Source: Patescibacteria group bacterium
Lineage (GTDB): Bacteria; Patescibacteriota; Dojkabacteria; J137
Length of the DNA: 64,000 nucleotides
Direction: 5' to 3'
NCBI GenBank assembly: GCA_016861265.1
Contig: BOLA01000001.1
Span: forward strand, 852,136-916,135
Shown piece by piece: positions 30,551 to 49,160 of this stretch. The notes below the pieces were generated by a model that was not told where the DNA came from, did no database searches, and saw only the letters and a program-made list of their open reading frames with translations. The translations under genes and the position numbers were made by a program. The number at the start of each line of letters is the position of its first letter. Position 1 is the first letter of the stretch.

Positions 30551-32618
30551 TACTAATAAGCTTTAAGGTATTTTCTGAAGGTATACTTGTAAAAATAATC
30601 TGCTGTGGTTTCAATCCATGTACAAACTTTACTAAATCATCTGAATAGTTATTTAGTCTAATAATCAGCTCAAGGTTTTTTTCCTTTGCTAACGCTTTGA
30701 GCAACTGCAATGTCTTTACACCAATTTCGTGATCAACATCTCGAATCTCACTTCTGAAAGTAAGAGCCTTAAGCAATTTTGAATAGTTAACAACAATTCC
30801 GTCTATTCTATTTTTTTCAATTCTATCGAGTTCAAATATAAAGGAAGGAATTGCAACTTCTGCATAAATTCTAAAATTGCCTGTCCTCTTTAATCCATTT
30901 ATAGTAAATACTTTTTCTATGTCCTCTAAGTTGCTTAGATTTCGGACAGCTGGAATACATACATTAATATTTCTGCTGTTATGTGTAATTCTAGATTTTT
31001 TTATTGCGGCAACCTCTAGTCCTAAGCTTTCCGGGTAGTCAATAAATCTTTCATCAAGGTTGTACTTGTATTTATTTTCTTTTACTCCTAATAGTGTCAA
31101 TTCCGCCGATGAAATTGACGACAGCTGATAAATCATTGGCTTATGAATTGCACATCTAGCAGCGGTGGATAAGTCTAGAGAATATTTTTCCAACAAGTTA
31201 ATTAATACTTTTTGGTTTGTAGAATATTCTTCAGGGAGAATATTATTATTTAAAATCATTTCGGTTCCGTCAAAGAAGCTTCCGCTAAAATACTGTAATG
31301 CACTTAAGTGTTTTGAATTCATTTTTGAAATATCCAAAAACACACCGGAATCAAAAAAGAAATCGTCTATATATTTTATTCTTGCATCTTCAGGTTCCTT
31401 ATCCTTTTTTAGCTCTGGGAAGTTCATTTCTCGTTCTTTTATAGGTTCTTCTACTTCAGGTATTACCTCTATTATTGGTTCATCTTCCTTCCCGTCGACT
31501 ATATCAAAGACTTCCTCTGCAAGCTTTTCTATGTCCGGCTCTTTATTTTTTGTTTGCTTCTCTTCTTTTTTCTCCGGTTTTTTCTCAGCAACTTTTACTT
31601 CCCTTTTTCGTTCTACAGTAGGTAGTTCCAATGGGTCTAATGCTAGTATATATATTTCCCCGGCTTCTATTCCCCATTTTACGCTTACATCTTGTTTAAA
31701 AAGTAACTCAATTTTTCTTGTAACTTTGGAAATATATACAATTGTCTCGTCATCTAATTTAGGATTCTTTTTCCAATTAGAAGATAATTCCACTTTTATG
31801 AATTTTTGTTTATCGGTTTTTTTTAATTCGTGAATATACATATGGTCTTGAGGAACAATATGGCTATTCACAATCGCAAATGTTTTATTATCTACCACAT
31901 AACTATCGCTGAACTCTTCAAAATTTTCATTCTCAATTCCATAAACAGCTCGTACTTGAATTTCGTTTTTGCTGAATACTGTGGCACTGTTAGCAATTCC
32001 AGAAACTTCTGCACGAATTAACTTTTGAATAATTAATCCTACACTAATTTCTCCCTTGTAATAACCATTTGCTCTGAATTCAATTGCCTCCTCACTAAAT
32101 AATTGAGCCCAAGAAGCTTTTATTTGATGTATTAAATCATCCTGTCCCTGTAATAGTATCTCTCCGGTATTTAGCCTGGTTGGAGGAACAAACTTTTCTT
32201 CAATAATATTCGAAGTGATGATTGTTACTATCGGGTTTTCGTTATTCTGACTTAGTTTTTTATATGCAAATTCAAGATCCTTTTGCAGCTTTTCCGGAAG
32301 TTTTGCTTCCATTATCAATTTTTTTATAGAAGCCGATGCTTCCTTCGCTGATTGTTTAATGAATGGTCTAACTTTTTTTAATTCTTTTGCAATAGGTGAA
32401 ACTAAATTGTTACTAACCAAAAATTCATCAAAGGCAACAGTGGAAATAATAAATGACGAAGGTATAGGAATATTTTCCTTTACTAGAAAAGCCAAATCAA
32501 TCGCTTCTCTTCCCGAAAGTTCAAAATCTCTTTCTCTTAAATTTTTTGGAATAAGAATAAATTCCGGAATTTTGTTGGCCATAGTTATCAATTCATTATG
32601 AAAGTTTAAAAAACCCAT
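30543..32618 (-). CDS. PEP-utilising-enzyme-like protein: a PPDK/PEP-synthase N-terminal nucleotide-binding domain and a C-terminal PEP-utiliser barrel-like domain joined by a Lys/Glu-rich linker
   Basis: The N-terminal segment GREAIDLAFLVKENIPIPSSFIISTVAFDEF resembles PPDK_N. The C-terminal RIDGIVVNYSKLLKAL region resembles the PEP-utiliser catalytic region. A low-complexity KE-rich linker of about 90 aa lies between them. Confidence 0.4.
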   Translation of the reverse strand: MGFLNFHNELITMANKIPEFILIPKNLRERDFELSGREAIDLAFLVKENIPIPSSFIISTVAFDEFLVSNNLVSPIAKELKKVRPFIKQSAKEASASIKKLIMEAKLPEKLQKDLEFAYKKLSQNNENPIVTIITSNIIEEKFVPPTRLNTGEILLQGQDDLIHQIKASWAQLFSEEAIEFRANGYYKGEISVGLIIQKLIRAEVSGIANSATVFSKNEIQVRAVYGIENENFEEFSDSYVVDNKTFAIVNSHIVPQDHMYIHELKKTDKQKFIKVELSSNWKKNPKLDDETIVYISKVTRKIELLFKQDVSVKWGIEAGEIYILALDPLELPTVERKREVKVAEKKPEKKEEKQTKNKEPDIEKLAEEVFDIVDGKEDEPIIEVIPEVEEPIKEREMNFPELKKDKEPEDARIKYIDDFFFDSGVFLDISKMNSKHLSALQYFSGSFFDGTEMILNNNILPEEYSTNQKVLINLLEKYSLDLSTAARCAIHKPMIYQLSSISSAELTLLGVKENKYKYNLDERFIDYPESLGLEVAAIKKSRITHNSRNINVCIPAVRNLSNLEDIEKVFTINGLKRTGNFRIYAEVAIPSFIFELDRIEKNRIDGIVVNYSKLLKALTFRSEIRDVDHEIGVKTLQLLKALAKEKNLELIIRLNNYSDDLVKFVHGLKPQQIIFTSIPSENTLKLISTN

Positions 32619-33540: not shown

Positions 33541-36006
33541 CTAGGCAATTGAGAATTTTTTCCCCTTATAAACAATTCTTACTTTCTGTCCTGACTTTAT
33601 TTTATCGTCAAGAATTAAACTAGAAAGTAAATTATCGATTTCACTTTGGACAGCCCTTTTTATTGGTCTAGCACCATATTGAGGATTGTAGCTGATATCC
33701 GCAATTTCATTCACAACACTTTCGTCGAATTCAACTTCAATATTTTGCGACCTCATTAGGGTTTTTGTATTATCTAGAATTAGCCTTACAATTTCGTTAA
33801 CTTCTTGCCTTGTAAGAGCTTTAAATACAATAATTTCATCAAGTCGATTTAAGAACTCCGGTCTAAAAAATTTTCTTAAGAGTTGAAATATGCCGGCTCT
33901 AACTTCGTCCCATGATGGAGTATCTTCGGAATTATCCTTTAATTTTATTAAGCCTTCGTGGCTTTCCTTGGGTCTGGTAACCTTACTTTGCTCATTTAAC
34001 CCAATTGAAGTTAGTATTAAATCACTTCCTATATTGCTTGTTGCAATAATTATCGTATTTTTAAAGTCTACTACTCTACCTTTCCCGTCTGTTAATTTCC
34101 CGTCGTCCAAGACTTGTAGCAGAATATTAAATACATCTGGATGTGCCTTTTCGAGCTCGTCTAGAAGTATTACAGAATAAGGTTTACGTCGTACTTTTTC
34201 GGTGAGTTGTCCGCCTTCTTCGTAGCCTACATAACCTGGAGGGGCTCCAATTAAACGTGTTACGGAGAATTTTTCCATATATTCACTCATATCAATTCTT
34301 ATGAGTGCATCTTCGTCCCCAAATACAATCTCAGATAAAGCTTTGGCTAGCTCAGTTTTTCCAACTCCAGTTGGTCCTAGAAATAGAAAACTGGCGATAG
34401 GTCTTCTGGGATCTTTTAATCCAGTTCTAGATCTCCTAATTGCCTGGGCAACTAAATGCACGGCCTCATGCTGGCCAATAACTCTTTCGTGCAATTTCTG
34501 CTCAAGATTCTTTAAACTTTCCTTTTCCGCCTTATTTAATTCAGTAATAGGAATACCAGTCATTCTACTTATAATCTCGTGAATGTCTGAAACAGTAACT
34601 TCTGGAGTTCCTGTGCCTCTTTGTTTTAACCAGTCTTCTTCAATAGGCTTGAGTTCTTCTTTAAGTTGTTCAATTTTCACTTTTATTTCGGCAGCTTCTT
34701 TGTGTTGAGAGGCTCTAGTTAAAGACTCTCTTTCCGTTTCAAGTTTCTTGATTTCATCTTTGAGTGTTCTAAGTTCTTTTGGTTCGCTAGTAAATTTTAT
34801 TCTTACTCTGCTTGCAGCTTCGTCCACAATGTCTATTGCCTTGTCGGGTAAAAAACGGTTTTTTATATATCTATCCGATAGATTTGCTGCAGCTACTAAA
34901 GCTTCTTCTTGTATTTTTAATTTGTGATGAGCTTCGTATCTTTCTTTTATTCCCTTCAAAATTAATACAGTTTGATCCACACTTGGCTCATTTACTAATA
35001 CGGGCTGAAATCTTCTTTCTAATGCCGCATCTTTTTCTATATATTTTTGATATTCATTTAGTGTAGTTGCACCAATTACTTGTAATTCGCCCCTTGCAAG
35101 AGCGGGTTTAATCATATTACTAAAGTCTAGTTCTCCGCTCTGAGCTCCGCTTCCAACAATTGTATGCAATTCGTCAATAAACAGAATTACGTTTCGTTCT
35201 ACTTTCTCTAGGTCATCAATTAATTTTTTAACTCTTTCTTCGAATTCGCCTCTAAATTTTGAACCTGCAACTAGCTTACTTAAATCTAGTGCACGTACGG
35301 TTTTGTTGCGTAAAACTTCGGGAACCTGATCTAAGACTATTTTTTGTGCTAGTCCTTCTGCTATTGCAGTTTTTCCTACTCCGGGTTCACCAATTAGCAC
35401 TGGGTTATTCTTTTTTCTTCGGGATAAAATTTCAATTACCCTAGTTATTTCATCTTCTCTGCCGATGACGGGATCAATTTTATCTTGTCTAGCAAGCTCA
35501 TTAAGATCTTTTGAAAATTCGTTAAGAGTAGGTGTATCTAGACCATTTCCCACTTTGTTACCTTCTTTATCACCTTCGCCAACAACTTTTATAACCGCTT
35601 GCCTTGCTTGAACATGATTAATGGCATATTTTCTAAGAATTTGCGCAGCCAAACCTTCCTGTTCAAGAATTAATCCTAGGAAAATATGTTCTGTTCCAAT
35701 GTAATTATGTCTTAGTTCAATGGATTCATTGTTTGCTAGTTGTAGTACCTGATAGGCTCTAGGAGTAAAGTTTGGAGTTTCCATAGAGAAGCTTCCTTGA
35801 GGGATTTGCTTATCAAGGTATTCTCTTAATTCATTTACGTTAACGCCTAGTTCCTTAAATACCCTCTTCATCACAACTTCGTCTTCGGTAATGCCATAAA
35901 GTATATGTTCAGTATCTATAGCTCTTTGCCCTTTCTGTTGGGCAACTTCAAATGCTTTTTGAAGTGCTTCTTGTGTTCTTTTTGAAAATTGATCTGGTAA
36001 ATTCAT
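33541..36006 (-). CDS. clpC: Clp/Hsp100 AAA+ chaperone (ClpC/ClpB family), ATP-binding subunit
   Basis: It has Clp_N repeats and two AAA modules ([14 protein letters not shown]; [18 protein letters not shown]), with a short middle domain. At 821 aa it is called ClpC-type rather than ClpB. Confidence 0.85.
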
Positions 36007-36155
36007 ATATTTTTCATTTTAAAATTTAAAAATGAATTATTTATACATATAAGCATATTTTAGCAGACAACCCGGCAGTCTGCTAATTTTTTAATTACAA
36101 GTGTAATCAATAGCTTTATCTGTTAGAATTTTAAAAGTTATACGTTTCTAATTTA

Positions 36156-36881
36156 ATGAGTTCTGCAGTGTATCCTGACGACAACCTAGAGCCAGATTTT
36201 CTTGATCAATTGGACGAAGAATCTGCACAGCCAAATGCAGTTAATCAGGATGCAAATCCTACATCATTTGCTGCAGGCAGAAAACTTTTAAGAGATTCTG
36301 TTTACAAGGGTGCTAATTTAGAAATCAGAAGAAAGGCCATTATTGCTAACATTGCTAAGTCCAAATATAGTCAATATAGCGAACAGAGATCTCTAAGAAT
36401 GGCTGCATCTGAGTATGATCAGATGGTTCAATTAGCATATGCAAAAATAAGAGGAGAAATGCCGGATTTAGATGCTGCTCAAGCAAGACTGCTGGCTGAA
36501 CAGGAGGTCTTAAAGGCCCAAGGTACATTGAAAACAAATGCACAAGCCCTAGCCTCTAAAGGAGGAAAGTTAGCAAAAAAAGGATTTAAAAAAGGAGTTA
36601 AATATGTAGGTAATATTTTATTACCGGGACTTGGTTCCGTATTGCACTTCTTTATTTTCAATAAAATTGGGAGAATAATCATTGTCTTAATTTGTTTATG
36701 CTGTTTCTTTTTAATTATAGAGGTATGGCAGACTTTTGCATCGGAAGATAAATGGAACTCTATTAGAGAATCAGCTAACTTAGTAAGCTGTGCTGGAGGT
36801 ACCGATAACGATAAGCTAGCTAAATGTTTATTTGATCAGAAAATTGAAGAGTATTCGCTTCAAGAACCAACACCTGAATAA
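36156..36881 (+). CDS. hypothetical membrane protein
   Basis: A 241-aa ORF with a C-terminal TM segment, lying 3 nt upstream of the giant hydrolase gene. Confidence 0.4.
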   Translation: MSSAVYPDDNLEPDFLDQLDEESAQPNAVNQDANPTSFAAGRKLLRDSVYKGANLEIRRKAIIANIAKSKYSQYSEQRSLRMAASEYDQMVQLAYAKIRGEMPDLDAAQARLLAEQEVLKAQGTLKTNAQALASKGGKLAKKGFKKGVKYVGNILLPGLGSVLHFFIFNKIGRIIIVLICLCCFFLIIEVWQTFASEDKWNSIRESANLVSCAGGTDNDKLAKCLFDQKIEEYSLQEPTPE

Positions 36882-36884
36882 AAC

Positions 36885-39800
36885 ATGGGAGACAAATTTT
36901 TGAATTTAAAAAATGAACTAAAGAATAAATTAATTGAAAGATTACCAATAATATTTATTGTAATAATTTCAATACTATTCACCTACTCCTTCATTAAGGA
37001 GAGTATTACGGTAAATATACAAACAGGAGCAGCTATTCCCAACTCTATAGTCAATTCTATTGTAGTGGCATTAGATAGTACAGTTAATCCAAATGGAATA
37101 ATTGCCGCAGCAGTAGATATTTCTGAAAAGGTACAAAACGGAGAGGGAATAATTGTAAAAGATGTATTCGATAGGTGTGTAATTCAAAGTGATAACAGAG
37201 TCAGCGATGGATTTTACCAGCCATTCGATACAAAAGCCGGTGTAAACAATGGTGATCCTATTGGAGATGGTAATGGTGGCGACGAAATTAGAAAATATTT
37301 AAGATACGACAACAGATCTTCGTTGGATTTAGAAGCAAGTCAAAACGTTGTAATTTTAATGAAAGGAACAGGACCAACTGTTCTGGCATCGGCAATTAGG
37401 AATATAAACGAAAAAGGAATGATACCTATAATCAGATTAGGTGTAATTGACATGGGAGATTATCCGTTTCAACTAACTGAAGATGCAAGTGAAATGGTTA
37501 ACTACTTTACACAAGTAGGTGATGAATTAATGCGTGAAAATAAAGGTTGGAAGGCCGTATTATCTTTAGGGCCTAATGAACCTACTACAGGAGGTGCTGG
37601 AGAAGGTAATATTCAGGTTATGGGTATTCCTGATTACCAGACAATGGTACAAAGAGAAAATCAGGCTGCTGATCAGTTACAAAAATACAGAGTTGTTAAT
37701 GGTGGTCCATTCTGGCTTGCACCTGCCATCTTTAATGGAACGGCATCTTATCAGGCAAATGGAAGAGAATATTCTCAAGATGTATATAGGCACTTGTATA
37801 TTGATGGAGAAGATACGAGTACAGAAAAAGACTACTGGAAAAGAAAAAGCATTGACCCAGACCTATTCGACGTGATGCTTGCAAACATATACATGAATGT
37901 GGCAAAACCTGCATATAACTTTTATAAGGAATTTGGGTTAAAAGAATATGTAGATAAAAGACCTGGATTAGTAACAATCGTTACAGAATTTGGAATAGAT
38001 CCATTCTCACCATCTTTAGTTACTGCTGATTTGAAACCTGACTTTAAGGCGTTCTACGAGGATCCTAAGGTAGAAGGAATAAATTGGTTTAGAGCACTTA
38101 AAGATAAGCCAGCCCCAGCCCCTGCTCCTTCACCAGAGCAAAGTGCTACCCTTGAGGACTTTATTAAATTCTTGGAACAATCCGGGAAGACGGCTAAAAA
38201 AATATCTCTAAAGAACTTTTCTTGGGTTAATTGCGCTTTGGGTACAACAATAGAACGAACTTCTACATCTTCAAGTGGTTCCAGCAGCGGAACTTTAAAT
38301 CCAACAACAAAGGGTGGTTTAAATGAAGGAGAGAACGCACCAGGCGGTGGTGCAACAATGGATACAGCTAAATCTTATGGGTTGGCAGGCTATAGTTTAG
38401 CAATTATAAACAATCCAGGCGACAGTGCTGCAGCAATTCAATTCATTAGCGAGTCAATTTCTAAAGGCTTCACACCGATTATACGTTTATGCGTAAACGT
38501 ATCTGGTTCATGTGGGTTTAATCTTTCCGGAGGCAGAGCCGATGATTTAGTGAGCTTTTATAATGCTGTATCACAAGGTGCATCTGGTAGCTTTATTGGA
38601 ATTGTGGGACCTAATGAACCTAGCACCGAATGGGGTGTATTTAATGCCTCGAGTATGGACGAAGTAAAAAGAGCTGCCGTTACAGCAGCAAAAACAATAA
38701 ACAAGAATGGAAAGATGCTGATTGGTACCCCAGCATTTAATCTCCAAACTCAGGATTTAACACAATTCAAAAGTGCATTTGGCGAAGCTAAGTTCGATGT
38801 TTTAATCGGCAATGCCTACAATATTGGAACAGCAAAAGCGGATGAAATTGCGGGCGAAGCCATCTCAACTTCTAAAGCAAACGGACTAAAATTTATTTTG
38901 ACGGAAACCGGTGCTATAAAAGGTGCTGCAGAAGATTTTGAAACTACAATCGGAAGATTATGTTCCCAAGTAGATGGATTCATGTTATTTAGATCTCAGG
39001 AAAGTTCTCCGGGGGGGAATTATGAGAATGTACCCCAGCCATTCGGGCCTGAAAAACTAAAGGCAATTGCTGCTGCATGCAATGGTAGCAACCCAACTTC
39101 CAGTAACGATAGTAATTCTACCGATAGCCGAGATGATTCATCAAATTCTGCTATTCAATGTACATCCGGGGTGGCAGATGACCAGATCATATTCCTAGGT
39201 GACAGTCTAACTAACGAACTTGTAGCAAAACAGTTTCCTGGCTCAAAAAATTTAGGATTTCCAGGAGCCAGCACTGAATGGTTAGTACCTGGATCCGAAC
39301 CAGCCAACGATAAGTCCGATCAATTAAATACGACTTTAAACGATCCAAAGTATAAAGCAATTGTAATTGAATTTGGAACGAACGACTGCGGAGGAGTAGA
39401 TGTAGGTAGGTTTAAACAAAATTTAACAACAATTATTAATAATATTAAGAATGTTAATGCTGAAGTAGACATTATCTTGAGTACAATACCGAGAGCGCAT
39501 AAAGCATGTTCAGCAAGTACAATAGACAGTTTTAATGCAGCTATTAACGAAGTTCGTTCATCTACAGGAGTTTTAGGCAGGGAACTTGGAGGTTCATTAT
39601 TCGATGAATCTGACTTAAGATCAGGTGACGACAGACACTTAACCGACGAAGCTTATGCTGAAATTGCACAAATAACCAAGGAGGCATTAGGCGGAGTTTG
39701 CGTAGGATCTAATACAGGAACAACTACAGAAACTACATTAGGTGCAGGATCTCTTGCACTTAGTTGTGGTGTTGAAGAAGACAAACCTGCTGAATTCTAC

Positions 39801-42800
39801 CAAGGCAAGAATGCCGCAGCATTAAGAGTTAGGTGTGCAGGAGGATCATGTACAACAAAAATGGTGGGAACAATCGAGATCGAAGCACCAACAAAATTAT
39901 TCTCTACAAATACTCCAAATGGGACCATGAGATTAAGATACGTACCGGTTTCTCAAGTTGCAGCAAGTCAATCAAAAACTGATGGCTACGACGGACTAAA
40001 TATGTTTGCCGGAGAAATAAAAATTGGTTCCGACAGTTATCCTCTACCGGGTTTGGGTAGTGCAATTAATTCAGCTACAGAGATATTAGAGGAAACAATG
40101 ACGTCGGGTGATCCTAAGAGATTCTCCACTCCAAGCGGACAATCATTATTAAAATGGACAAGAAATAAACTTGAAATACAGAGTCAACAGGGAAAAACAA
40201 TCGGTGTTGTTGGCGAGAAGAATGTAGGAGGGTTCACCACGAATGCATTCTCTATACAGGAAAAAGAAGGAAATAGCCTAGAGTCTATAAATGAAAGAGC
40301 TGTTACTTACGATGGCTTAACATTTAATAACGATGCTGGTTTAGCTGATTGGAGGAAAAACTTAATGCCTTATGACCCTTCAATTGCATTCCCAACCTAT
40401 ATTGCACCTAAAGCTTGTCAGCAAAGTGAAATGAAATTTATTAATAATTTAGATAATTACGTTACTGGTCCTGAATTAGTGGTAGAGGAAGAAAAAACTG
40501 TTACTACAAATACAACTCAGCAAATCTGTTGGATGTATGCCGGAAGAAGTATTCCAGGAAGAACTCCATATATGTCTGGTGACGGTGTTAAGACTTGCGG
40601 TTATATTTTTGATACAAGAATATTCTCAGATGCAAATATAGATGCAATTTCACCAAGAAAGGGTAAGCCGTTACATAGAATCTACGAGACTGTATATAAC
40701 GAACTATTGGGTACTTATGTAACAACAAGTCGAATTGAAGAAGGCAATTGGACTTGTCAGGAATTATTTACCGGGCAGGCAAATGGTACAGACGGTGTGG
40801 ACGAAGATGCAGAATTCAAGAATGTTGAAGCACCTAAGGTATTACCAAATTGTGACTTCGACGATTATTATTTTGAATTATATAAAGGTAAACTATCAGA
40901 TGCACCAGGCAATCCTGCTAGAAGCGGTAGATGCGATATTCCTGCGGATCTAGTTTCCTGCTTAAGATACGATGCTCAGGATTCAGACGAGGTCTATATT
41001 CATACCGAAAAATACCCAATAGCAAGTAAAGTTAAAATTCCAAAAATCTACTCTGCTCTTTACGGCCTTTACGATAGATTACAAACAATGATGAGTAACC
41101 GAAACATGAAGATGGTATTCAGGGAAAATATTGGAATGAAATTCAAGGTAAACTCAAAAATTCGAGACGCAAACGAATCCATTAGTGCAGTTCAATATGA
41201 CTTCTCAACACAGTACGATAATTATTATCAACCTGAATTAATTGATAATACTTTACCTTTGGCATCAAACAATCCTACAAAGACTCAATTTCAATATTTT
41301 GATGATCTAGGTTACCTGGATATTTTGCAGGAATATACTGTAGCCTATGCTAATGAACAAGCAATAATAGGAGATCATGTAATGGATAATCCTTTTGTAG
41401 AAAAAGGAATCTTTAACCCACTACAGGATAGAACAAAAATTGTTGCAGGAGGAGAATCTAATTTAAGTCTAGCAAATCCAATACTAACCTGCGATCAAGT
41501 CGAGATCTGTAAAAACTATACGTATACTGAACTTGAAACAACTTTCGGACCAACAATGGCGCTTAGGCTTTGTCCATTAACCGAAAAACTACCGGTTGAT
41601 GCTAAGAAGAACTGTATAACAAATATTTCAGATGATAGATTTATTGATAGGTTGAATACAACGCTATGTGCTAGAGGTTTTAATGTAGACGAAAACTGTC
41701 ATTTTCAATGTTCAGTTTCAGGTCAAGGTGGTAATAACAGTGGTGGTAATGGTACAACACCCGTAATTATTAATGGTACATATTCAACGCTATTTCCTGT
41801 AAGTAAATCTAGACAAATTCCAAACTGTACTGAACCTGCAAGTGTTCAAGTTGTAAATACTGATAGACCTGTACAAAACGATGAAGGTATGACCAGCATT
41901 AGTCTAATACCTGTTGCCAAGCAGGCGCTAGAACAGATGATGGCCGCTATGAAACAAAACGATCCTTCTACCTACGCAAAATGCGGATTTGCATATGGCT
42001 ACAGAAGTGCCGAAATGCAGGGTACGTACACTTGTGGATCCGGTACGGCATGTAAGTGTCACAGTGAACATCAACTAGGTACTACTGTAGACTTTAGAAA
42101 TGCCGAAGATATGTCTGCCGCAAATAAGTTTAACGGTTCAGCATGTAGTAATTGGCTAAGGTCTAATGCTGCTAATTACGGATTTATTCAGTCTTATACT
42201 GGTGCAGATCCAGATTACGTTGCAGAATCGTGGCACTACAGATACATTGGAATAGAAGAAGCTCAGAAATTCAAGGCACAAAGTCAATATACATACTTAA
42301 GAGCCTATCTTGAAAGTATACAATCGGGAGGTAACTCTTCAGGGAATGGTAATACATCAAATATTCCAGGAGACTTTAAAGTAAGATATCCTACGGAGTT
42401 CGATACCTTAACCGGAAATTACGGAACTAAGGGAGGTTATGCAACCCATACTGGTGTAGATATAAGAGTTTCGGGGGTTGGAGGAACTATATTCGCTGCA
42501 GAATCCGGTACGGTTCTTTATGCTGGACCAGATAACGAAAATAATGCTAACTATACATGCGTAACCGATTCTAATAGCAATAAATATAGTCCATTATGTC
42601 AACAATTAGGTCTAAGTAATATTGGTGCATACGGATTCATGGTAAAAATACTACATCCAAATGGTAAGGTAACCCTATATGCCCATAATTCCGATTTAAA
42701 GGTAAAGACTGGAGATTGTGTTAATAAAGGGGATTTAATTGCACTAGCAGGCAGTGTTGGTAATTCTACTGGCCCACATAGTCACTTTGAAATTAGAAAG

Positions 42801-44306
42801 AACTCTTCATGTTCTTGGGACGGTAACAGTTTGGGAGTATGTACTGAACCACCAGAAGATTATCTTGTTCCAGGTGGCGGAAACACTTCGGTATTTACTA
42901 GCGATCAAATTAAAAGTGTATGTAATGGTGTGCTGCCACCTACAGATCCTGGAACGGGTGATGGGGATGAAATCGTATGTAGACCAACAGGTGAAGATGA
43001 AATTCCTACAGATGATAATCCAAAGCAGACACCTGGAGGTGCATTGTGCTTAATTAAGAAAGCAGCAGATTCACTAACTGCTAACGGTATACCTACAAAT
43101 CCATATATGATGTATGCAATATTACATCAAGAAACACAGTCACTATTAGATCCTTTAGCAGGTAAGAATGACTTTATTTGTCCTACAACCTGGGACGATT
43201 GGGCTCTAAATATTGGTAATTTGTCTTCCTTGCCAAAGTGTACAGGTGATCCAAATCAGAAAGCATTTGCGTCATTTAACAGATCGAATCCACCAAATAT
43301 TGATGTAAGAGGATTAACACAGTTCTACTCTGCTACGTTTAATGGGATTATTAATAATTACGATAGCGTAATGACAAATTGCATTAACGATTTAGGTGTA
43401 GATAACACAATTGCAAACAGTATTTGGTTAGATCCATTAAGTAGTCAGCCAGGTAAATTCAGTAGGCATAGAGTTGGAGATGCTATCTGTGCTCAAGCTG
43501 TTAAGTTAATGAACGATGCAAGAACTGCAAATGGAGGCACTTACCTTACAGTGGAAGAATGGTTGAGTAATCCGGAGATAATAAGGCAAACCGCATGTAC
43601 TTATTATGGTGCATGTCAGGACAATTACGAGGTCAATGTATTGAGATACTTTAATGAAGCAGTTCAAGCAAAGGTATTCGACAATTTAGATTGTAGCGGA
43701 AATTCAACCGGTCCAGATCCAAGCGGCGTACTAAGTTGTAATGTTAATACAAGTGCAGCATCTACCACACCCGACTTTAGTAAGAGTGCATTGTCCTGGG
43801 AAGCTTACATTAGAGCTTTAAATCTTGATAATAATTCAAGCTATGTATGGTTTGCAAACCCTAATGGCGAAAGTGACAACCTAAAGCAAAGGTTAATAAA
43901 TAAGCTAGGCAGTGAGTCTGCTTACCAACAGGACTATAATCAAAGATTACAGGTTACTAATGCGTTTATAGACAAGGCCAAGTCATTGGGAATAAATCCT
44001 CAGTTTGCATTAACACTGTGGTTTGAAGAAACTGAATTCTCTGCTGTGGGTAAGGCTGCATTAGGCTGTTTGTATTTTAGAAATGGTACACAAACAACAG
44101 ACATTCCTAGAGATGGTAATCCCGCAAGCCAAATAGCCCACTTAAATCAGCAATTAGAATGTTTAAACACCTATGTTGATGAATTCACGGAGTTTAGACA
44201 ATTTATGTGTACATATTCCGGAGAAGTTGGTAGGCCTAACTGTACGGAATTCAAGAACAATCCGAACTTCCCGAAAAATATTTGCAGATATTACGATTGG
44301 TTTTAA
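36885..44306 (+). CDS. giant (2473-aa) membrane-anchored multi-domain cell-wall hydrolase carrying SGNH/GDSL esterase, peptidase M15 (VanY-like D-Ala-D-Ala carboxypeptidase) and peptidase M23 domains
   Basis: N-terminal TM. GDSL block IIFLGDSLTNE plus DRHLTDEAYAEIA (SGNH block V). M15 motifs CHSEHQLGTTVDFRN and ESWHYRY. M23 motifs YATHTGVDI...HNSDLKVKTGDCVNKGDLIALAGSVGNSTGPHSHFEI. A PAPAPAPSPE linker. An uninterrupted 7.4-kb ORF. Confidence 0.7.
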   Translation: MGDKFLNLKNELKNKLIERLPIIFIVIISILFTYSFIKESITVNIQTGAAIPNSIVNSIVVALDSTVNPNGIIAAAVDISEKVQNGEGIIVKDVFDRCVIQSDNRVSDGFYQPFDTKAGVNNGDPIGDGNGGDEIRKYLRYDNRSSLDLEASQNVVILMKGTGPTVLASAIRNINEKGMIPIIRLGVIDMGDYPFQLTEDASEMVNYFTQVGDELMRENKGWKAVLSLGPNEPTTGGAGEGNIQVMGIPDYQTMVQRENQAADQLQKYRVVNGGPFWLAPAIFNGTASYQANGREYSQDVYRHLYIDGEDTSTEKDYWKRKSIDPDLFDVMLANIYMNVAKPAYNFYKEFGLKEYVDKRPGLVTIVTEFGIDPFSPSLVTADLKPDFKAFYEDPKVEGINWFRALKDKPAPAPAPSPEQSATLEDFIKFLEQSGKTAKKISLKNFSWVNCALGTTIERTSTSSSGSSSGTLNPTTKGGLNEGENAPGGGATMDTAKSYGLAGYSLAIINNPGDSAAAIQFISESISKGFTPIIRLCVNVSGSCGFNLSGGRADDLVSFYNAVSQGASGSFIGIVGPNEPSTEWGVFNASSMDEVKRAAVTAAKTINKNGKMLIGTPAFNLQTQDLTQFKSAFGEAKFDVLIGNAYNIGTAKADEIAGEAISTSKANGLKFILTETGAIKGAAEDFETTIGRLCSQVDGFMLFRSQESSPGGNYENVPQPFGPEKLKAIAAACNGSNPTSSNDSNSTDSRDDSSNSAIQCTSGVADDQIIFLGDSLTNELVAKQFPGSKNLGFPGASTEWLVPGSEPANDKSDQLNTTLNDPKYKAIVIEFGTNDCGGVDVGRFKQNLTTIINNIKNVNAEVDIILSTIPRAHKACSASTIDSFNAAINEVRSSTGVLGRELGGSLFDESDLRSGDDRHLTDEAYAEIAQITKEALGGVCVGSNTGTTTETTLGAGSLALSCGVEEDKPAEFYQGKNAAALRVRCAGGSCTTKMVGTIEIEAPTKLFSTNTPNGTMRLRYVPVSQVAASQSKTDGYDGLNMFAGEIKIGSDSYPLPGLGSAINSATEILEETMTSGDPKRFSTPSGQSLLKWTRNKLEIQSQQGKTIGVVGEKNVGGFTTNAFSIQEKEGNSLESINERAVTYDGLTFNNDAGLADWRKNLMPYDPSIAFPTYIAPKACQQSEMKFINNLDNYVTGPELVVEEEKTVTTNTTQQICWMYAGRSIPGRTPYMSGDGVKTCGYIFDTRIFSDANIDAISPRKGKPLHRIYETVYNELLGTYVTTSRIEEGNWTCQELFTGQANGTDGVDEDAEFKNVEAPKVLPNCDFDDYYFELYKGKLSDAPGNPARSGRCDIPADLVSCLRYDAQDSDEVYIHTEKYPIASKVKIPKIYSALYGLYDRLQTMMSNRNMKMVFRENIGMKFKVNSKIRDANESISAVQYDFSTQYDNYYQPELIDNTLPLASNNPTKTQFQYFDDLGYLDILQEYTVAYANEQAIIGDHVMDNPFVEKGIFNPLQDRTKIVAGGESNLSLANPILTCDQVEICKNYTYTELETTFGPTMALRLCPLTEKLPVDAKKNCITNISDDRFIDRLNTTLCARGFNVDENCHFQCSVSGQGGNNSGGNGTTPVIINGTYSTLFPVSKSRQIPNCTEPASVQVVNTDRPVQNDEGMTSISLIPVAKQALEQMMAAMKQNDPSTYAKCGFAYGYRSAEMQGTYTCGSGTACKCHSEHQLGTTVDFRNAEDMSAANKFNGSACSNWLRSNAANYGFIQSYTGADPDYVAESWHYRYIGIEEAQKFKAQSQYTYLRAYLESIQSGGNSSGNGNTSNIPGDFKVRYPTEFDTLTGNYGTKGGYATHTGVDIRVSGVGGTIFAAESGTVLYAGPDNENNANYTCVTDSNSNKYSPLCQQLGLSNIGAYGFMVKILHPNGKVTLYAHNSDLKVKTGDCVNKGDLIALAGSVGNSTGPHSHFEIRKNSSCSWDGNSLGVCTEPPEDYLVPGGGNTSVFTSDQIKSVCNGVLPPTDPGTGDGDEIVCRPTGEDEIPTDDNPKQTPGGALCLIKKAADSLTANGIPTNPYMMYAILHQETQSLLDPLAGKNDFICPTTWDDWALNIGNLSSLPKCTGDPNQKAFASFNRSNPPNIDVRGLTQFYSATFNGIINNYDSVMTNCINDLGVDNTIANSIWLDPLSSQPGKFSRHRVGDAICAQAVKLMNDARTANGGTYLTVEEWLSNPEIIRQTACTYYGACQDNYEVNVLRYFNEAVQAKVFDNLDCSGNSTGPDPSGVLSCNVNTSAASTTPDFSKSALSWEAYIRALNLDNNSSYVWFANPNGESDNLKQRLINKLGSESAYQQDYNQRLQVTNAFIDKAKSLGINPQFALTLWFEETEFSAVGKAALGCLYFRNGTQTTDIPRDGNPASQIAHLNQQLECLNTYVDEFTEFRQFMCTYSGEVGRPNCTEFKNNPNFPKNICRYYDWF

Positions 44307-44315
44307 AATATAATT

Positions 44316-44774
44316 ATGGAAGATAAACAACAGACAAAAAAGAAAAAACGATTTAATTTAGACTTCACGAATGCTTTTATTGCATTAATGGGTGTGGCAT
44401 TAGTTTCTGTTGTGATTTATGCAATAATCTTAAACATTACAGGGGTTAATAATACAGATACATCAACCAATCAGCTTAATGGCCAGATTCAAGAACCAAA
44501 GAAAGAAGTTACGATAGCTGGTGATGGCTATATTGTTTATAAAATAGGCTCACAATACTATTTAGAGGTTACGGATGGAAGAAAAGTTAAAGATGTAAAC
44601 GCACTTTTAAGAAGTCTTGAATTACCTACAGACACCGAAATTATTAATCCTGCAGCGGCGTACCCTAGACCTGTACCTACAGAAGAAATGCCTACGGATA
44701 CGGAACATGAAGATGATAATTTCGATCCAATAAATCCAAATCCGTCAACTCCTGAAAGTGACCCTAACGAATAG
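44316..44774 (+). CDS. small membrane-anchored protein with a Pro/Thr/Glu-rich C-terminus
   Basis: A 152-aa ORF with a TM (IALMGVALVSVVIYAIIL) and a C-terminal PTEEMPTDTEHEDD stretch. Confidence 0.4.
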   Translation: MEDKQQTKKKKRFNLDFTNAFIALMGVALVSVVIYAIILNITGVNNTDTSTNQLNGQIQEPKKEVTIAGDGYIVYKIGSQYYLEVTDGRKVKDVNALLRSLELPTDTEIINPAAAYPRPVPTEEMPTDTEHEDDNFDPINPNPSTPESDPNE

Positions 44775-44866
44775 GCTTATCACATAATGTTCATAGCCTG
44801 TGCAGTTGAATAAATTTGATTATTGAATTATACTTTTTCCTGTTACATTAAGCGTTTCCCAAAATT

Positions 44867-47800
44867 ATGGCAAATAAAATCTCATCAATATTTGACTTGA
44901 ACTCAAGACAAATTAAGTCTACCGACAAAGCATTCCAAAAGATAAGATCATTAAAAGATGACGTTGAAAAAATGTCTTATGAAGACATGCAGAAAAGAAT
45001 AAAGGAAATGAAGGCCGAGTTAACTAAAATGACGGATGAAATTCCTTTCGAAAAAAAATTATCCTTAAGAAAGATAGATAGAACAAAGCCTCTACCAAAG
45101 GAAGAAATCGCAATTCAGAATAAATTAAATGAATTTCTACCAGAAGTTTTCGCATTCATGGATGAGGTCTTTTTTAGAAAAGTCGGTTTTAGATATCATG
45201 ATGTTCAGTTAAGAGCAGGAATAATTTTGGCACAAGGTCAAAGACTAGTAGAACTCTATACTGGAGAAGGTAAAACAATGACCTTCCAATTACCTTTAGT
45301 GCTCTACTCTCTAGCTGGACGAGGAGCCCATTTGGTAACTGTGAATGACTATTTATCACGAAGAGATGGTGAGTATGCAGGTCATATTGCATCTGCCCTA
45401 GGCTTAACGGTAGGTATTGTAAGTTCAACTGCTTCTTATAAATTTGTTTTCGATGAACAGCTAAAATTTGTAAAAGGTGAAGGAGCGGCTGAATTAAGAG
45501 AAAAAATGCCAAAGATTCAGATTAGTGCAATGGATGGTATAAACTTAGTGGAATGTGTAAAACGGGAATCCTATAACTGTGATATTACATATGGAACAAA
45601 CAATGAATACGGCTTTGATTATCTAAGGGATAATATGTCTTGGGATTTAAATAATATTTCCCAACGAGAATTATACTTCTGTATTATTGACGAGGCTGAC
45701 TCAATCTTAATTGATGAAGCCAGAACTCCACTTATTATCTCCGGCATTCCTACTGATGCAAATGTAAGTAAATATAAATTATTTGCAGAGGCAGTAAATG
45801 ACTTGGTTGAAAATGAACACTACGAAGTAGATCATAAAACTAGAAGAGTAATGCTTACTGAAGAAGGTATTCAAATGGTAGAAAATAAACTTGGCGTTGA
45901 TAACCTATGGAAGGATTACTCAATGGCATACCATATTGAAAATGCACTGAAAGCACAGACAATGTTTAATCGGGATGAACATTACCTTGTTAAGGGAGGT
46001 GAAGTTTTAATAGTAGATGAATTCACCGGAAGAATTTTAAAAGGAAGACGATATTCAGAAGGTTTACATCAAGCCATTGAAGCAAAAGAAGGTGTAGAAG
46101 TAAGACAAGAAAGTAAGACTTATGCAACAATCACATTCCAAAACTTTTTCAGACTCTATAAAGTATTATGTGGTGGTTCCGGAACAGTTATGACAGAAGC
46201 AGAAGAATTCTACAAAATCTATGGTCTTGAGACTGTTCAAGTACCTACAAATAGACCCGTAGTTAGAGTTGATAGTCCTGACTTAATTTACAAGAACCAG
46301 AATGCGAAATATAAGGCAGTGGTTGCAGAAATAAAAGAAAGGCACTCTAAAGGCCAACCTGTATTAGTTGGTACTACATCTGTAGATAAATCAGAAATAA
46401 TTTCAAATTTACTAGACATAGAAAGAATTCCACACGAAGTCTTGAATGCTAAATACCACGAACAGGAAGCTAAGATTATTGAAAAGGCAGGTAGAAAAGG
46501 AGCTGTAACAGTTGCAACTAATATGGCAGGAAGAGGTGCTGACATTGTTATCGGAGGAGGATCAAGAGGCGATGAGGCCTATGAAGAGATTAAAGCATTA
46601 GGCGGTTTGCATGTAATCGGTACAGAAAGGCACGAATCTAGAAGAATTGATAATCAGCTAAGAGGTAGAACGGGACGACAGGGTGAGCCCGGTTCATCAA
46701 GATTTTACGTTGCCCTAGATGATCAATTAATGAGAATTCTTGGTGGAGACATGATGGGAAGTCTTATGGCAAGAGTCGGCATGGATGACGATACACCAAT
46801 TGAATTAAAGCTTATTTCAAAACAAATTGAATCCGCTCAAAAAAGAATTGAAGGAATGAATTTTGACTCAAGAAAACAAATTGTTGACTACGACGATGTT
46901 ATGAATCAACATAGAGAAATTTTCTATAGCAGGAGAAGAAACTTCCTACAGAGTGCTGAGGAAGCATCAGGGAAATTTATCGAACAGGGTAATCTAGTAG
47001 TAGTTAGTTCTTTAGATAAACAACACCAGGAGCAATACAACTCCAAAATAGAATCTGCACAAGAAAATTTAATAAAAATTATTAAAGCTTTAGTAGATTT
47101 AGAGGTTTCTAATTTTACTAAAACTCAATTATCCAATAACAAGAAATGGAATAAGGAAGTAGTTTCAAATATTGTAAAGAATTTTACTGAAATTATTCCT
47201 GTTTCGATATTGGCTAAAGTTCTAAATATTCAGACCAGCAAAGTAACGGAATTCTTGTCAGAAGAGTTATTAAAAGATAAATCTGATAAGTCCGAGAAAT
47301 ATCTTGTAGAACTAGCAGATAAGGTAATAGATGAAAAACAAAAAGAATTTGGAAAAGAATTCTATTATGTAGCTAAGGCAATCACACTACAGACAATGGA
47401 TAATATTTGGGTCGATCATCTTGAGTTGATGAAAGATATTAGAGATGGGATTGGATTACAAGCATACGCACAAAAGGATCCGTTGGTTGAATATAAAAAT
47501 GAGGCGTATATTGTATTTGAATCCTTCATTCAAAATATTAATAAAGATGTGGTAAAGCAGATACTATCAATTCAGAGACTAACACCTGAAATGGTAAATG
47601 CTCAACCTACGTTAGCAAATGCAGTAACCAATGAAGATCAAATTACAGATGTTCTAACCGAAGACAGAGAGTTTATTGCAGACCAAGGTAACGACAATAA
47701 GGTTCTGGCATCGTCATTAGTTGGAAGACTCGAAAGTGAAAGAAAGCAGAATGCTGTAAGTGGCGGATTAGGCCAGGAAAATAATACAAGAAAAATTAAC

Positions 47801-47935
47801 GCGAAGGCATTTAAACAATTTAATAGAAACGATAGAGTTACTGTTAGATATTCAGATGGTGAAGTTCAAAAGGATGTTAAGTTCAAGAAGGTTGAAAACG
47901 ATTTATTAACCGGTAAGGCAGTTATTGTAGATTAA
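44867..47935 (+). CDS. secA: preprotein translocase ATPase SecA
   Basis: It has the DEAD-like motor (ELYTGEGKTMTFQLP, IIDEADSILIDEARTPLIISG), the preprotein cross-linking and helical scaffold domains, and a long C-terminal tail; 1022 aa. Confidence 0.9.
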   Translation: MANKISSIFDLNSRQIKSTDKAFQKIRSLKDDVEKMSYEDMQKRIKEMKAELTKMTDEIPFEKKLSLRKIDRTKPLPKEEIAIQNKLNEFLPEVFAFMDEVFFRKVGFRYHDVQLRAGIILAQGQRLVELYTGEGKTMTFQLPLVLYSLAGRGAHLVTVNDYLSRRDGEYAGHIASALGLTVGIVSSTASYKFVFDEQLKFVKGEGAAELREKMPKIQISAMDGINLVECVKRESYNCDITYGTNNEYGFDYLRDNMSWDLNNISQRELYFCIIDEADSILIDEARTPLIISGIPTDANVSKYKLFAEAVNDLVENEHYEVDHKTRRVMLTEEGIQMVENKLGVDNLWKDYSMAYHIENALKAQTMFNRDEHYLVKGGEVLIVDEFTGRILKGRRYSEGLHQAIEAKEGVEVRQESKTYATITFQNFFRLYKVLCGGSGTVMTEAEEFYKIYGLETVQVPTNRPVVRVDSPDLIYKNQNAKYKAVVAEIKERHSKGQPVLVGTTSVDKSEIISNLLDIERIPHEVLNAKYHEQEAKIIEKAGRKGAVTVATNMAGRGADIVIGGGSRGDEAYEEIKALGGLHVIGTERHESRRIDNQLRGRTGRQGEPGSSRFYVALDDQLMRILGGDMMGSLMARVGMDDDTPIELKLISKQIESAQKRIEGMNFDSRKQIVDYDDVMNQHREIFYSRRRNFLQSAEEASGKFIEQGNLVVVSSLDKQHQEQYNSKIESAQENLIKIIKALVDLEVSNFTKTQLSNNKKWNKEVVSNIVKNFTEIIPVSILAKVLNIQTSKVTEFLSEELLKDKSDKSEKYLVELADKVIDEKQKEFGKEFYYVAKAITLQTMDNIWVDHLELMKDIRDGIGLQAYAQKDPLVEYKNEAYIVFESFIQNINKDVVKQILSIQRLTPEMVNAQPTLANAVTNEDQITDVLTEDREFIADQGNDNKVLASSLVGRLESERKQNAVSGGLGQENNTRKINAKAFKQFNRNDRVTVRYSDGEVQKDVKFKKVENDLLTGKAVIVD

Positions 47936-47946
47936 TATGTAGGTCG

Positions 47947-47967
47947 GCCTGAGCTTCGCTCAGGCCT
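47947..47967 (+). terminator. rho-independent terminator after secA
   Basis: GGCCTGAGC-ttcg-CTCAGGCC followed by ttttta. Confidence 0.6.
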
Positions 47968-47969
47968 TT

Positions 47970-49160
47970 TTATAGACTTAAACTTCCTTCGTCGCCCAAT
48001 CTCCAATAGGAAATTCCGTTTATTCCGTAATCTGCCGCTAACTTCTTTCTAACTTCAATAGAATCTTTATTAGAATATACTATCCATCTTTTTTGTCCAT
48101 TAAAATCATAAGACCCAAGCATTTCGCCCCAATTCTCAATAAATTTTTGATCTACAGAATAGTTAGAAAATAGTTTATCTACTCCATTATGATAATATGC
48201 AACAGCTGCCTCGGAACCAAAATCATTATCAGGAAGTCCTTCTGTAGTGTAATAAAGTAGATCATATTGAATTGGTCTATCAGACCAATCTTGTGCATAA
48301 GTATTAATTCCTAATACTATTTTCTCTCTTGGAACTCCCTCTTTTATTGCGTACCTAATAATATCTTCTAGCCAGTCTAAAGGCCCAATTGGACCAATAG
48401 TATTGCTATTAGTTGGAGTGTAGGAATATCCTTGTATTATAAATACATCAACTATCTCTCCTAGCTTTTTGTAATCTAGGGTTGCCCTAGTCTGAGCGTA
48501 CGATATATTATTGCCCCACTTAGCTAACGCACTAAAATATAGTTTTTTATTGATTGTATTAAGTCTCTCTTTTAGCTGGGCAAGCATATCAAGAAAGGGT
48601 TTTTGATCGTTTACATAAAAGCTTTCAAAGTCTAAATCAATTCCCTGATAATTATTTTGTTGAATATATTCAATTGTCTCGTTAATAAATCTGTTTACGT
48701 ATTCTTGGGAATTTAGTACCCGATTTAGTTTATCTCTTTCGAATGCTGTAATTGTGGGAACAAGATCAATATTATTATTTGAAGTATACTCTATAAATGT
48801 ACTCCAATTTGTATACCCGTTAGTAGCTAGGCTTCCATTATCATTTAAATCAAACCAAAAAGGGCTTACGCTGGTTATCAATGAGTTATTCTGTAGTGTT
48901 GTTAAACCATCCTGCATATCCCAATCAGGTATCCATCCGTAAAACTTTAGTTCGCCTATGTCTTTTTGTTGCTTTGGAATAGATTGTATAGCATCAATTT
49001 CAAGGTCGAAATCGGTCTTGTTAGATGTGTAAATCTTTATTTCATTTGTCTCTTCTATCGTTTTAATGTTTGGATTATTATATTTTTGATATGCAAAAAA
49101 GGAAGCAACTCCAATTACTAAAAATAATACAATTACAATTATTAATCGCATATTAATCAC
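47970..49160 (-). CDS. glycoside hydrolase family 18-like protein (chitinase / YaaH-type peptidoglycan hydrolase-like), membrane-anchored
   Basis: The GH18 catalytic motif variant QGIDLDFESF (DxxDxDxE) is present, with an N-terminal TM. Confidence 0.5.
   Translation of the reverse strand: MINMRLIIVIVLFLVIGVASFFAYQKYNNPNIKTIEETNEIKIYTSNKTDFDLEIDAIQSIPKQQKDIGELKFYGWIPDWDMQDGLTTLQNNSLITSVSPFWFDLNDNGSLATNGYTNWSTFIEYTSNNNIDLVPTITAFERDKLNRVLNSQEYVNRFINETIEYIQQNNYQGIDLDFESFYVNDQKPFLDMLAQLKERLNTINKKLYFSALAKWGNNISYAQTRATLDYKKLGEIVDVFIIQGYSYTPTNSNTIGPIGPLDWLEDIIRYAIKEGVPREKIVLGINTYAQDWSDRPIQYDLLYYTTEGLPDNDFGSEAAVAYYHNGVDKLFSNYSVDQKFIENWGEMLGSYDFNGQKRWIVYSNKDSIEVRKKLAADYGINGISYWRLGDEGSLSL

Follow-up and report, generated by a model that had tools for sequence, protein, structure and literature searches.

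What kind of protein joins three different cell wall-active domains in a single gene of 7.4 kb, and whose wall would such a protein act on? These questions are raised by a giant gene at 36885..44306 (plus strand) of a 64,000-nt stretch of contig BOLA01000001.1 from a Patescibacteria group bacterium (Dojkabacteria, J137); we refer to the whole stretch as the window, and all positions are given in its coordinates. A preliminary description of this DNA had read the gene as a fusion of an SGNH esterase, an M15 (VanY-like) peptidase and an M23 peptidase behind a membrane anchor, and had linked it to attack on a host cell wall. We find that the protein belongs to a family whose conserved core lies elsewhere, in a barrel followed by a Cys-rich module without known relatives (D4), and that the enzymes behind this core are exchanged between close genomes. 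As to the target, the evidence tips slightly towards the envelope of a host cell.

The open reading frame (ORF) begins with an ATG, contains zero in-frame stops under table 11 and encodes 2473 amino acids (aa) followed by a stop codon, in a window whose G+C content of ~30-40% fits a Patescibacteria genome. A single strongly hydrophobic segment at aa 20-40 (36942..37004; Kyte-Doolittle mean up to 2.24) is the sole transmembrane (TM) helix and is preceded by a long charged N-region; the ORF and its membrane anchor stand as first described. No LPXTG/sortase motif was found in the sequence of the C-terminus. The protein is best explained as a type-II membrane protein with its N-terminus inside, in which aa 20-40 would serve as an uncleaved signal anchor and leave an ectodomain of ~2430 residues outside the cell.

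An identical protein was returned from a 123-kb contig by a single-sequence homolog search, and full-length homologs were found at 74, 62 and 56% identity, along with four more at 52-61% identity that cover ~65% of the query. These homologs were drawn from independent contigs in Logan, ENA, JGI and NCBI assemblies, and both the linkers and the order of the domains are conserved among them. Full-length homologs in separate assemblies of different origin show that the fusion is genuine; that adjacent hydrolase genes were joined by an error of assembly or gene calling, a concern named in the preliminary description, is so improbable in the light of these homologs and of the uninterrupted reading frame that we rejected it. 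The GTDB species genomes with relatives are labelled Candidatus Dojkabacteria, and two TPA bins are labelled Saccharibacteria. An NCBI protein (MBE0573533.1) that is 99% identical to family member P0004 is named 'peptidoglycan DD-metalloendopeptidase family protein [Candidatus Dojkabacteria bacterium]'.

The three catalytic assignments held, each domain scoring above its Pfam curated cut-off with the active-site residues intact; residue conservation was assessed in an alignment of the giant protein with its 8 closest homologs. The SGNH/GDSL hydrolase (aa 765-940; 39177..39704) matches Lipase_GDSL_2 (PF13472) at aa 778-925 with 41.1 bits (cut-off 32.9) and contains blocks I, II, III and V, represented by S774 (GDS), G791, N833 (GTND) and D915/H918 (DDRH). 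S774, G791, N833 and H918 are invariant in the 8 homologs, and D915 is kept in the 5 homologs aligned there, the other 3 having a gap. The M15B (VanY-type) peptidase (aa 1625-1805; 41757..42299) matches VanY (PF02557) at aa 1674-1789 with 58.0 bits (cut-off 25). Its SxHxxGxAxD motif reads SEHQLGTTVD (H1729, D1736), with Thr in place of Ala, and its ExxH motif reads ESWH (E1781, H1784); H1729 and E1781 are invariant in the 8 homologs, and D1736 and H1784 are retained solely in the 4 VanY-type homologs among them. The M23 (LytM/lysostaphin-type) peptidase (aa 1825-1992; 42357..42860) matches Peptidase_M23 (PF01551) at aa 1854-1974 with 75.3 bits (cut-off 28.7) and M23 structures in the PDB with E-values down to 4.5e-22. 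It carries an insertion of ~35 aa, and its zinc ligands H1855/D1859 (HTGVD) and H1965/H1967 (HSH), as well as the catalytic H1934, are invariant in all 8 homologs.

Judged from their sequences, the SGNH, M15B VanY-type and M23 modules are genuine hydrolase domains whose active sites are complete. The narrower labels given at first fared less well. Membership of the SGNH superfamily is supported, the specific O-acetylesterase label is not: the domain had no NCBIfam match, and its PDB profile matches, to sialate O-acetylesterase and lysophospholipase L1, were weak (E 0.03-0.04). Similarly, an M15B VanY-type domain is present, and the label of a D-Ala-D-Ala carboxypeptidase is more specific than the scores allow, with NCBIfam vanY_BG at 39.3 bits (cut-off 400) and LdcB at 38.3 bits (cut-off 275). 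Neither specific activity can be assigned, because the NCBIfam equivalog scores lie far under the cut-offs.

Conserved modules outside the known hydrolase domains

The three Pfam domains span just ~400 residues of the giant protein. Much of the remainder had been taken for long Cys-rich spacers, a view that profile comparisons and a confident structure model of D4 contradict: the ~1,700 residues outside the Pfam domains form five more conserved globular modules (two barrels, D4, D7 and D8). Module boundaries were set by cutting the family alignment at low-complexity linkers and comparing the segments profile against profile. Used as single sequences, the unassigned segments gave zero matches in Pfam, NCBIfam and PHROG scans, and the full-length family profile matched PDB sequences only over M23 and, weakly, SGNH. 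The ectodomain comprises at least eight folded modules on short Ser/Gly/Asn/Pro-rich linkers; the protein has 54 Cys in total, and the ectodomain is probably disulfide-stabilised. Closest to the membrane lies a conserved sub-domain (aa 45-154; 37017..37346), which is 56-80% identical among homologs and has neither a Pfam match nor detectable relatives. Recognisable carbohydrate-binding modules were absent from Pfam scans of the giant protein and of 27 surveyed family members.

The first two large modules are paralogs, D1 (aa 155-452; 37347..38240) and D2 (aa 495-745; 38367..39119), and the regions aa 45-405 and aa 495-740 are homologous (hhalign 99.1%, E 8e-19). The Pro-Ala stretch of the preliminary description, KPAPAPAPSPEQ, is present at aa 408-419, in a Pro-Ala loop of D1 that spans aa 406-419. 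Signature motifs are IIRLG, GPNEP (E232), N-x-Y and TEFG (E368) in D1 and IIRLC, GPNEP (E578), NAY and TETG (E674) in D2, and the four Glu residues are invariant across the 8 homologs. In a profile of 18 diverse module copies from across the family, the order Arg (IIRL), GPNEP, N-x-Y, TE(F/T)G, FFR is kept throughout; the nucleophile Glu of TExG is invariant in the 18 modules, and Asn-Glu occurs in at least 90%. The residue order Arg, Asn-Glu, x-Tyr and Glu in TExG is that of clan GH-A retaining glycosidases.

The top PDB matches of the barrel profile were a glycoside hydrolase family 2 (GH2) catalytic domain (E 0.046) and GH5 xyloglucanases (E 0.074), followed by a GH5_4 endoglucanase (E 0.74) and a glucuronidase (E 1.6). 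All of these align on the N-x-Y...TExG block, the nucleophile strand, and in the xyloglucanase alignment the barrel TExG falls on the enzyme strand VVITETGA. The Pfam model Cellulase (PF00150, GH5) matched 2 of the 18 barrel members at E 0.009 and Glyco_hydro_cc matched at E 0.13; none of the GH-A family models, in Pfam or among PDB profiles, scored above threshold. We regard it as likely that D1 and D2 are clan GH-A-like barrels, and they are probable retaining glycosidases of the GH-A type, with E232/E368 and E578/E674 as candidate catalytic pairs.

Behind the M23 domain lie two further modules. D7 (aa 2050-2277; 43032..43715) carries HQETQ (E2083), RGLTQF and YYGA, and E2083 is invariant in the 8 homologs. 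The module occurs as two subtypes, a canonical one with LSLES, GP(F/M)QF and AYNGG, and the window type with HQETQ, GLTQF and YYGA, which are linked by an hhalign probability of 90.4% with the same motifs aligned. For canonical D7, all four PDB matches under E 10 were lysozymes; the matches to goose-type (GH23) lysozymes (E 0.09-0.5) were collinear on the catalytic Glu block and on AYNxG. The Pfam model SLT_2 matched D7 in 1 of 9 members (E 0.14), and no SLT or GH23 model in Pfam or PDB scored above threshold. Taken together, these motifs and alignments make it quite likely that D7 is lysozyme- or lytic-transglycosylase-like, of GH23 (SLT) type. D8 (aa 2280-2473; 43722..44303) is an orphan C-terminal module with no relatives found in PDB or Pfam; its conserved motifs are W-x-EE-[ST] (within LWFEETEF), ALGC, CTYSGE and NNPNFP. 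The possibilities that D7 and D8 are a duplicated pair, or that D8 is a cryptic lysozyme-like module, were rejected (hhalign 0.2% and 0.1%).

A conserved barrel-D4 core with an exchangeable enzyme cassette

The family is defined by D4, a Cys-rich module of ~660 aa (aa 950-1615; 39732..41729) with 17 Cys, 12 of which are kept in 89% or more of 28 diverse members. An AlphaFold (AF2) model built from these 28 sequences reached a mean predicted local distance difference test (pLDDT) of 84.5 and a predicted template modelling score (pTM) of 0.80, and was used in preference to a model from 10 sequences (pLDDT 51). This supplies the structure prediction of an inter-domain region that the preliminary description had called for, and the region is predicted to be folded, as a mixed alpha/beta domain with long beta-hairpins. 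Foldseek searches with the model gave no significant match in the PDB, where the best one reached E 0.14 and TM 0.06, and no relative in BFVD. The D4 profile likewise had zero matches among PDB sequences even at E 10 and only noise in Pfam, and no internal repeat was found within the module. D4 could be a conserved scaffold, a substrate-recognition element or a new catalytic unit.

An exhaustive HMMER search of 1.84 billion representative proteins with the D4 profile (E <=0.001) gave 74 matches, 70 of them at E <=1e-10 and 53 at <=1e-30. Nearly all of these proteins are 1300-2450 aa long, D4 follows an N-terminal barrel in most, and the few that are taxonomically labelled are Patescibacteria. 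Mapping hidden Markov models of the modules onto the members revealed a common plan, in which a TM helix is followed by one or two barrels, then by D4 and finally by a variable tail. The protein of the window follows this plan as a variant with two barrels, an SGNH domain before D4, and M15, M23, D7 and D8 behind it. Distant relatives (P0009, from Dojkabacteria, at 27% identity, and P0010) have just the barrel and D4 in common with it. By these sequence comparisons, the conserved core of the family is the barrel plus D4 and not the peptidases.

Around this core the enzymes vary. In about eight members (P0014, P0025, P0029, P0031, P0035, P0040, P0047 and P0048) the SGNH domain is inserted inside D4; the insertion follows the first ~110-170 residues of D4, at a point that coincides with the loop modelled at lowest confidence (residues 164-171). 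The Pfam survey of 27 members identified M23 (14), SGNH (5-7), NAGPA (4), VanY (3), M15_4 (2), GH25 (1) and Amidase_2 (1), the last also in P0072. All tail domains surveyed are cell wall-directed enzymes, and no LysM, SH3b or PG_binding domain was seen among the 27.

How these tails change became apparent from a comparison of the window with three syntenic genomes (L001, L002 and L004). SecA and ClpB are 84-87% identical between the window and these genomes, the N-terminal modules of the giant protein 45-63% and the small flanking proteins 26-51%. The SecA of L001 and L004 is as near to that of the window (84-85%) as is the SecA of L002, yet in the L001/L004 lineage everything after D4 has been replaced: M15 has given way to a second M23 domain, D7 to its other subtype (17-18% identity), and D8 is lost. 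The N-terminal 1600 aa persist at 46-61% identity where the C-terminal cassette has been exchanged. A second M23 domain stands in place of M15 in the subfamily P0005-P0008. Since the replacement occurs between close genomes, the conserved core carries a recombining enzyme cassette, and the modules after D4, as read from these alignments, are a swappable set of wall-directed enzymes.

In public databases the members bear only automatic names, among them 'M15 family metallopeptidase', 'peptidoglycan DD-metalloendopeptidase family protein', 'LdcB', 'exopolysaccharide biosynthesis protein' and 'hypothetical'. A literature search found no description of the barrel plus D4 family.

Genes around the giant gene

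Ten genomic contexts (L001-L006 and L010-L013) were compared. In the close lineage, a sortase-like gene, a PPDK_N protein gene and clpB lie upstream on the minus strand, followed on the plus strand by a gene of ~240 aa, the giant gene, a gene of ~150-180 aa and secA, and then by GH18 and rmuC genes on the minus strand. clpB is divergent upstream of the giant gene in 8 of the 10 contexts; a GT4/MraY-like gene, lepA and tRNA synthetase genes are other neighbours. Genes for secretion systems, pili, transporters or toxin/immunity functions were linked to the giant gene in none of the ten contexts.

The gene immediately downstream is the most constant partner. In all ten contexts, a gene of 100-180 aa on the same strand begins no more than 25 nt after the giant gene or overlaps it. 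These ten small partners have almost no sequence similarity across the family and share one topology, in which a single TM helix separates a short basic tail from an ectodomain of ~80-140 aa. The copy in the window (44316..44774, plus strand; 152 aa) is the small P/T/E-rich protein already pointed out in the preliminary description, which had not mentioned its N-terminal TM helix; it has a basic N-tail, a TM segment at aa 21-39 and an ectodomain ending in the P/T/E-rich tail. The gene upstream (36156..36881, plus strand) encodes a 241-aa membrane protein with a helical N-part, a Cys-rich TM hairpin (LICLCCFFLII) and a short C-tail with a conserved SCAG...C, and 3 nt separate its stop codon from the start of the giant gene. 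This protein has no Pfam, NCBIfam or PHROG match and is confined to the close lineage, where positional homologs are 25-35% identical; it is absent in L010-L013.

secA (44867..47935, plus strand) would be the last gene of a putative four-gene unit with gaps of 3, 9 and 92 nt. The best sigma-70-like promoter match (35982..36011, plus strand; 10/12) lies in the divergent intergenic region between clpB and the 241-aa gene; it is a consensus match, and the total of such matches in the region is not above shuffle expectation. Right after secA, a hairpin with a 9-bp stem (7 GC pairs) and a T-run (47946..47966) is the only plus-strand intrinsic-terminator-like site in the scanned region 35800-48200. 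Because of the promoter-like site, the terminator-like site and the short gaps, it is plausible that the 241-aa gene, the giant gene, the small partner gene and secA form one transcription unit. secA accompanies the giant gene in L001-L005 as well as L010, and not in L006, L011 and L012; the L013 contig stops 27 nt past the small partner gene and is hence uninformative. In terms of family members, secA follows the giant gene in the close lineage, P0009 and P0020, and not in P0010, P0015 and P0057, while the contig of P0072 ends earlier.

Two further wall-related genes named in the preliminary description are real. The GH18 gene (47970-49160, minus strand) is conserved near the giant gene in the close genomes and in L010. 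The LysM-M23 gene (60054-61115, plus strand; LysM E 8e-16, M23 E 4e-30) encodes a 353-aa protein that is the sole paralog of any giant-protein module within the window and is a plausible housekeeping septal hydrolase or activator. Directly after it, a membrane protein gene (61115-62431, plus strand) carries Ferric_reduct, FAD_binding_8 and NAD_binding_1 domains; such a NOX/ferric-reductase-like protein seems unusual for Patescibacteria with their reduced redox metabolism.

On the other side of the syntenic block, a 691-aa protein (30543-32618, minus strand) has only a PPDK_N domain (pyruvate phosphate dikinase, ATP-binding) and lies beside clpB in the close genomes and in L010. A 270-aa ORF (29120-29932, minus strand) has no Pfam match at E <=1e-4; the homologs that occupy its position in L001 and L004 contain PF04203 (Sortase), and it is probably a divergent sortase. 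Just upstream of the block, a large serine recombinase of 524 aa (27510-29084, plus strand; Resolvase, Recombinase and Zn_ribbon_recom) may mark the edge of an integrated element; no serine recombinase occurs in the corresponding gene lists of L001, L002 and L004. The RmuC of L002 (22114-23259) is 31.5% identical to that of the window (49153-50301, minus strand), as against 84-87% for L001 and L004, despite the SecA and ClpB of L002 being as near to the window as those of L001 and L004. The L002 RmuC may be a replaced paralog or the result of a local exchange.

Possible targets and related systems

By a narrow balance of probability, we read the giant protein as a Sec-exported, membrane-tethered multi-enzyme wall degrader whose most likely target is the envelope of a host. 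For the target itself, we put the chances at about even that it is the envelope of an adjoining (host) cell where the two cells touch. The protein would be exported via Sec, with secA presumably co-transcribed, and would stay tethered to the membrane of its producer. The SGNH module would remove ester substituents on glycans, D7 and perhaps the barrels would cut glycan strands, the M15 module would act on stem-peptide termini and the M23 module would cut cross-links, such that the modules would work together as a wall-dismantling device with one bond type per module. The barrels may instead act on wall-associated polysaccharide and not on glycan strands, and the small single-pass partner may be a regulator, an anchor or a self-protection factor.

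A host wall is favoured because of the swapping of the cassette, the very large ectodomain and the separate conventional LysM-M23 gene, which could cover housekeeping septal cleavage. In the same direction, all cultivated Patescibacteria are described as obligate episymbionts (PMC11623550), and the predatory or episymbiotic role first proposed for this locus is plausible. The strict synteny with clpB and secA and the vertical inheritance suit a housekeeping autolysin just as well. Several observations weigh against our reading as a whole. The locus has no adhesins, pili, secretion-system or recognisable immunity genes, D4 and D8 are orphans for which no function can be inferred, and the assignments to GH-A and GH23 consist of sub-threshold matches (E 0.05-0.1) and motifs. 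A divergence faster than that of SecA is normal for any extracellular protein. The giant gene appears to be single-copy and vertically inherited amid the housekeeping genes clpB, secA, rmuC, GT4/MraY-like and lepA, as expected of a core autolysin.

This last point leads to the main alternative, a housekeeping autolysin, in which a genome of ~1.1 Mb would entrust the activities for growth, for the splitting of septa and for the turnover of its own peptidoglycan to one tethered protein controlled by its small partner. We think this possible, though less than probable. The strict synteny with clpB, secA, rmuC and the GT4 gene, apparently vertical inheritance down to 27% identity, an apparently single copy (with no other match to D1-D4, D7 or D8 within the window) and a tether that holds the enzymes at the producer's surface all speak for it, as does the simple database name of the close relative MBE0573533.1. 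Patescibacteria usually retain peptidoglycan synthesis (PMC13293708) and therefore need autolysins. Against this, the wholesale swap of a cassette between genomes with ~85% identical SecA is unusual for an enzyme matched to the producer's own wall, which evolves slowly, not all Patescibacteria have the family (74 representatives only), a conventional LysM-M23 gene is also present, and an ectodomain of 2430 aa is far above known housekeeping autolysins in size.

Two other roles fare worse. A scavenger of free wall debris or environmental polysaccharide, releasing sugars, amino sugars and peptides for uptake with no specific host, would account for the two GH-A-like barrels, the NAGPA or GH25 domains of relatives and the conserved GH18 gene nearby, and would suit Patescibacteria, which lack many biosynthetic pathways (PMC13293708). 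We consider it improbable, as transporter or sugar-catabolic genes are linked in none of the 10 contexts, carbohydrate-binding modules were not recognisable in the Pfam scans, and the peptidase modules belong to cross-link-specific families typical of attack on intact walls. A wall-piercing hydrolase for a trans-envelope machine (type IV secretion or type IV pilus), like PrgK, TraG and CwlT, is very improbable indeed. The N-terminal TM anchor and the combination of M23 with an SLT-like domain do recall PrgK-type proteins, and a monoderm-type type IV secretion system (T4SS) is present in Patescibacteria (PMC12102498). However, no VirB4, VirD4, pilus or other machine genes lie beside the giant gene in any of the ten contexts, the protein has three times the size of PrgK-type proteins, and these are not known to contain the barrel plus D4 core. 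A T4SS-associated role was rejected on gene context, the neighbours being clpB, secA, GH18, rmuC and tRNA synthetase genes.

A bolder form of the host-directed reading, which we offer as doubtful speculation, is that the barrel plus D4 core is an unrecognised unit for recognition or cleavage of host envelopes. In that case Dojkabacteria-type episymbionts would breach walls with members of this family, as membrane-tethered counterparts in function to phage tail lysins; recombination would exchange the C-terminal cassette to fit the wall chemistries of different hosts, the small partner would shield the producer's wall or gate activity, and D4 would be a new fold with a new activity or binding specificity.

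Few molecular candidates for host access by Patescibacteria exist beyond type IV pili and the monoderm-type T4SS, and the family is a concrete, testable one, predicted to be surface-tethered and equipped with putative enzymes for nearly every class of peptidoglycan bond. If the protein is instead the cell's own autolysin, it would show how a ~1.1 Mb genome consolidates wall remodelling in one protein. Either way, two orphan modules and a divergent GH-A-like barrel are made available for enzyme discovery. What is new is the architecture around D4, with its confidently predicted and so far unmatched model fold; the principle of a modular wall hydrolase is known.

Several known systems resemble the giant protein in part. 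The Omnitrophota 'Archaeovorin' giants, which have SLT-type domains and were proposed to bind and degrade prey walls (West-Roberts et al. 2023, bioRxiv 10.1101/2023.11.21.568195), are likewise very large proteins of ultrasmall, putatively predatory or symbiotic bacteria. They belong to another phylum, are tens of thousands of residues in length and consist largely of glycosyltransferase, TPR and other domains, whereas the giant protein has 2.5 k residues and a defined set of hydrolases; no evidence of homology between the two was found. PrgK (pCF10), TraG (pIP501) and CwlT (ICEBs1) combine an N-terminal TM anchor with several wall-cutting domains, as the giant protein does. They are ~300-900 aa long, have LytM/M23, SLT and CHAP domains and are encoded in T4SS operons; they are not known to contain GH-A-like barrels, D4, SGNH, M15 or D8. 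Unlike the genes for these conjugation hydrolases (Laverde Gomez et al. 2014, as cited in PMC12102498), the giant gene adjoins clpB and secA, with no T4SS gene in the 10 contexts.

At the level of single modules, the barrels show the same order of conserved residues as clan GH-A (GH5 and GH2; 4w85 and 9fz9), ending in an aromatic residue, but are short (250-300 aa), and every match falls under the family threshold (E 0.046-1.6). We know of no GH-A family that cleaves peptidoglycan. D7 has in common with goose-type lysozymes and family-1 lytic transglycosylases (3gxk and 3wyh; SLT, SLT_2) the order of a Glu-Ser/Thr after a hydrophobic helix, G-x-x-Q-F and an AYNxG-like motif; its matches to GH23 reach just E ~0.1, and the window type has diverged further (Glu-Thr, YYGA), with Cys-rich insertions. 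The M23 domain matches LytM, lysostaphin, zoocin A and phage proteins that have an M23 domain within a large virion or internal protein (Gp16, 9m7n; internal protein, 9k2v), with E-values between 1e-11 and 1e-17. The residues for zinc binding and catalysis are identical, and in both cases each type of bond has its own enzyme. Autolysins, bacteriocins and phage lysins of this modular kind join two or three modules with SH3b, LysM or CBD targeting domains, whereas the giant protein has at least eight modules, no known wall-binding domain and a membrane tether.

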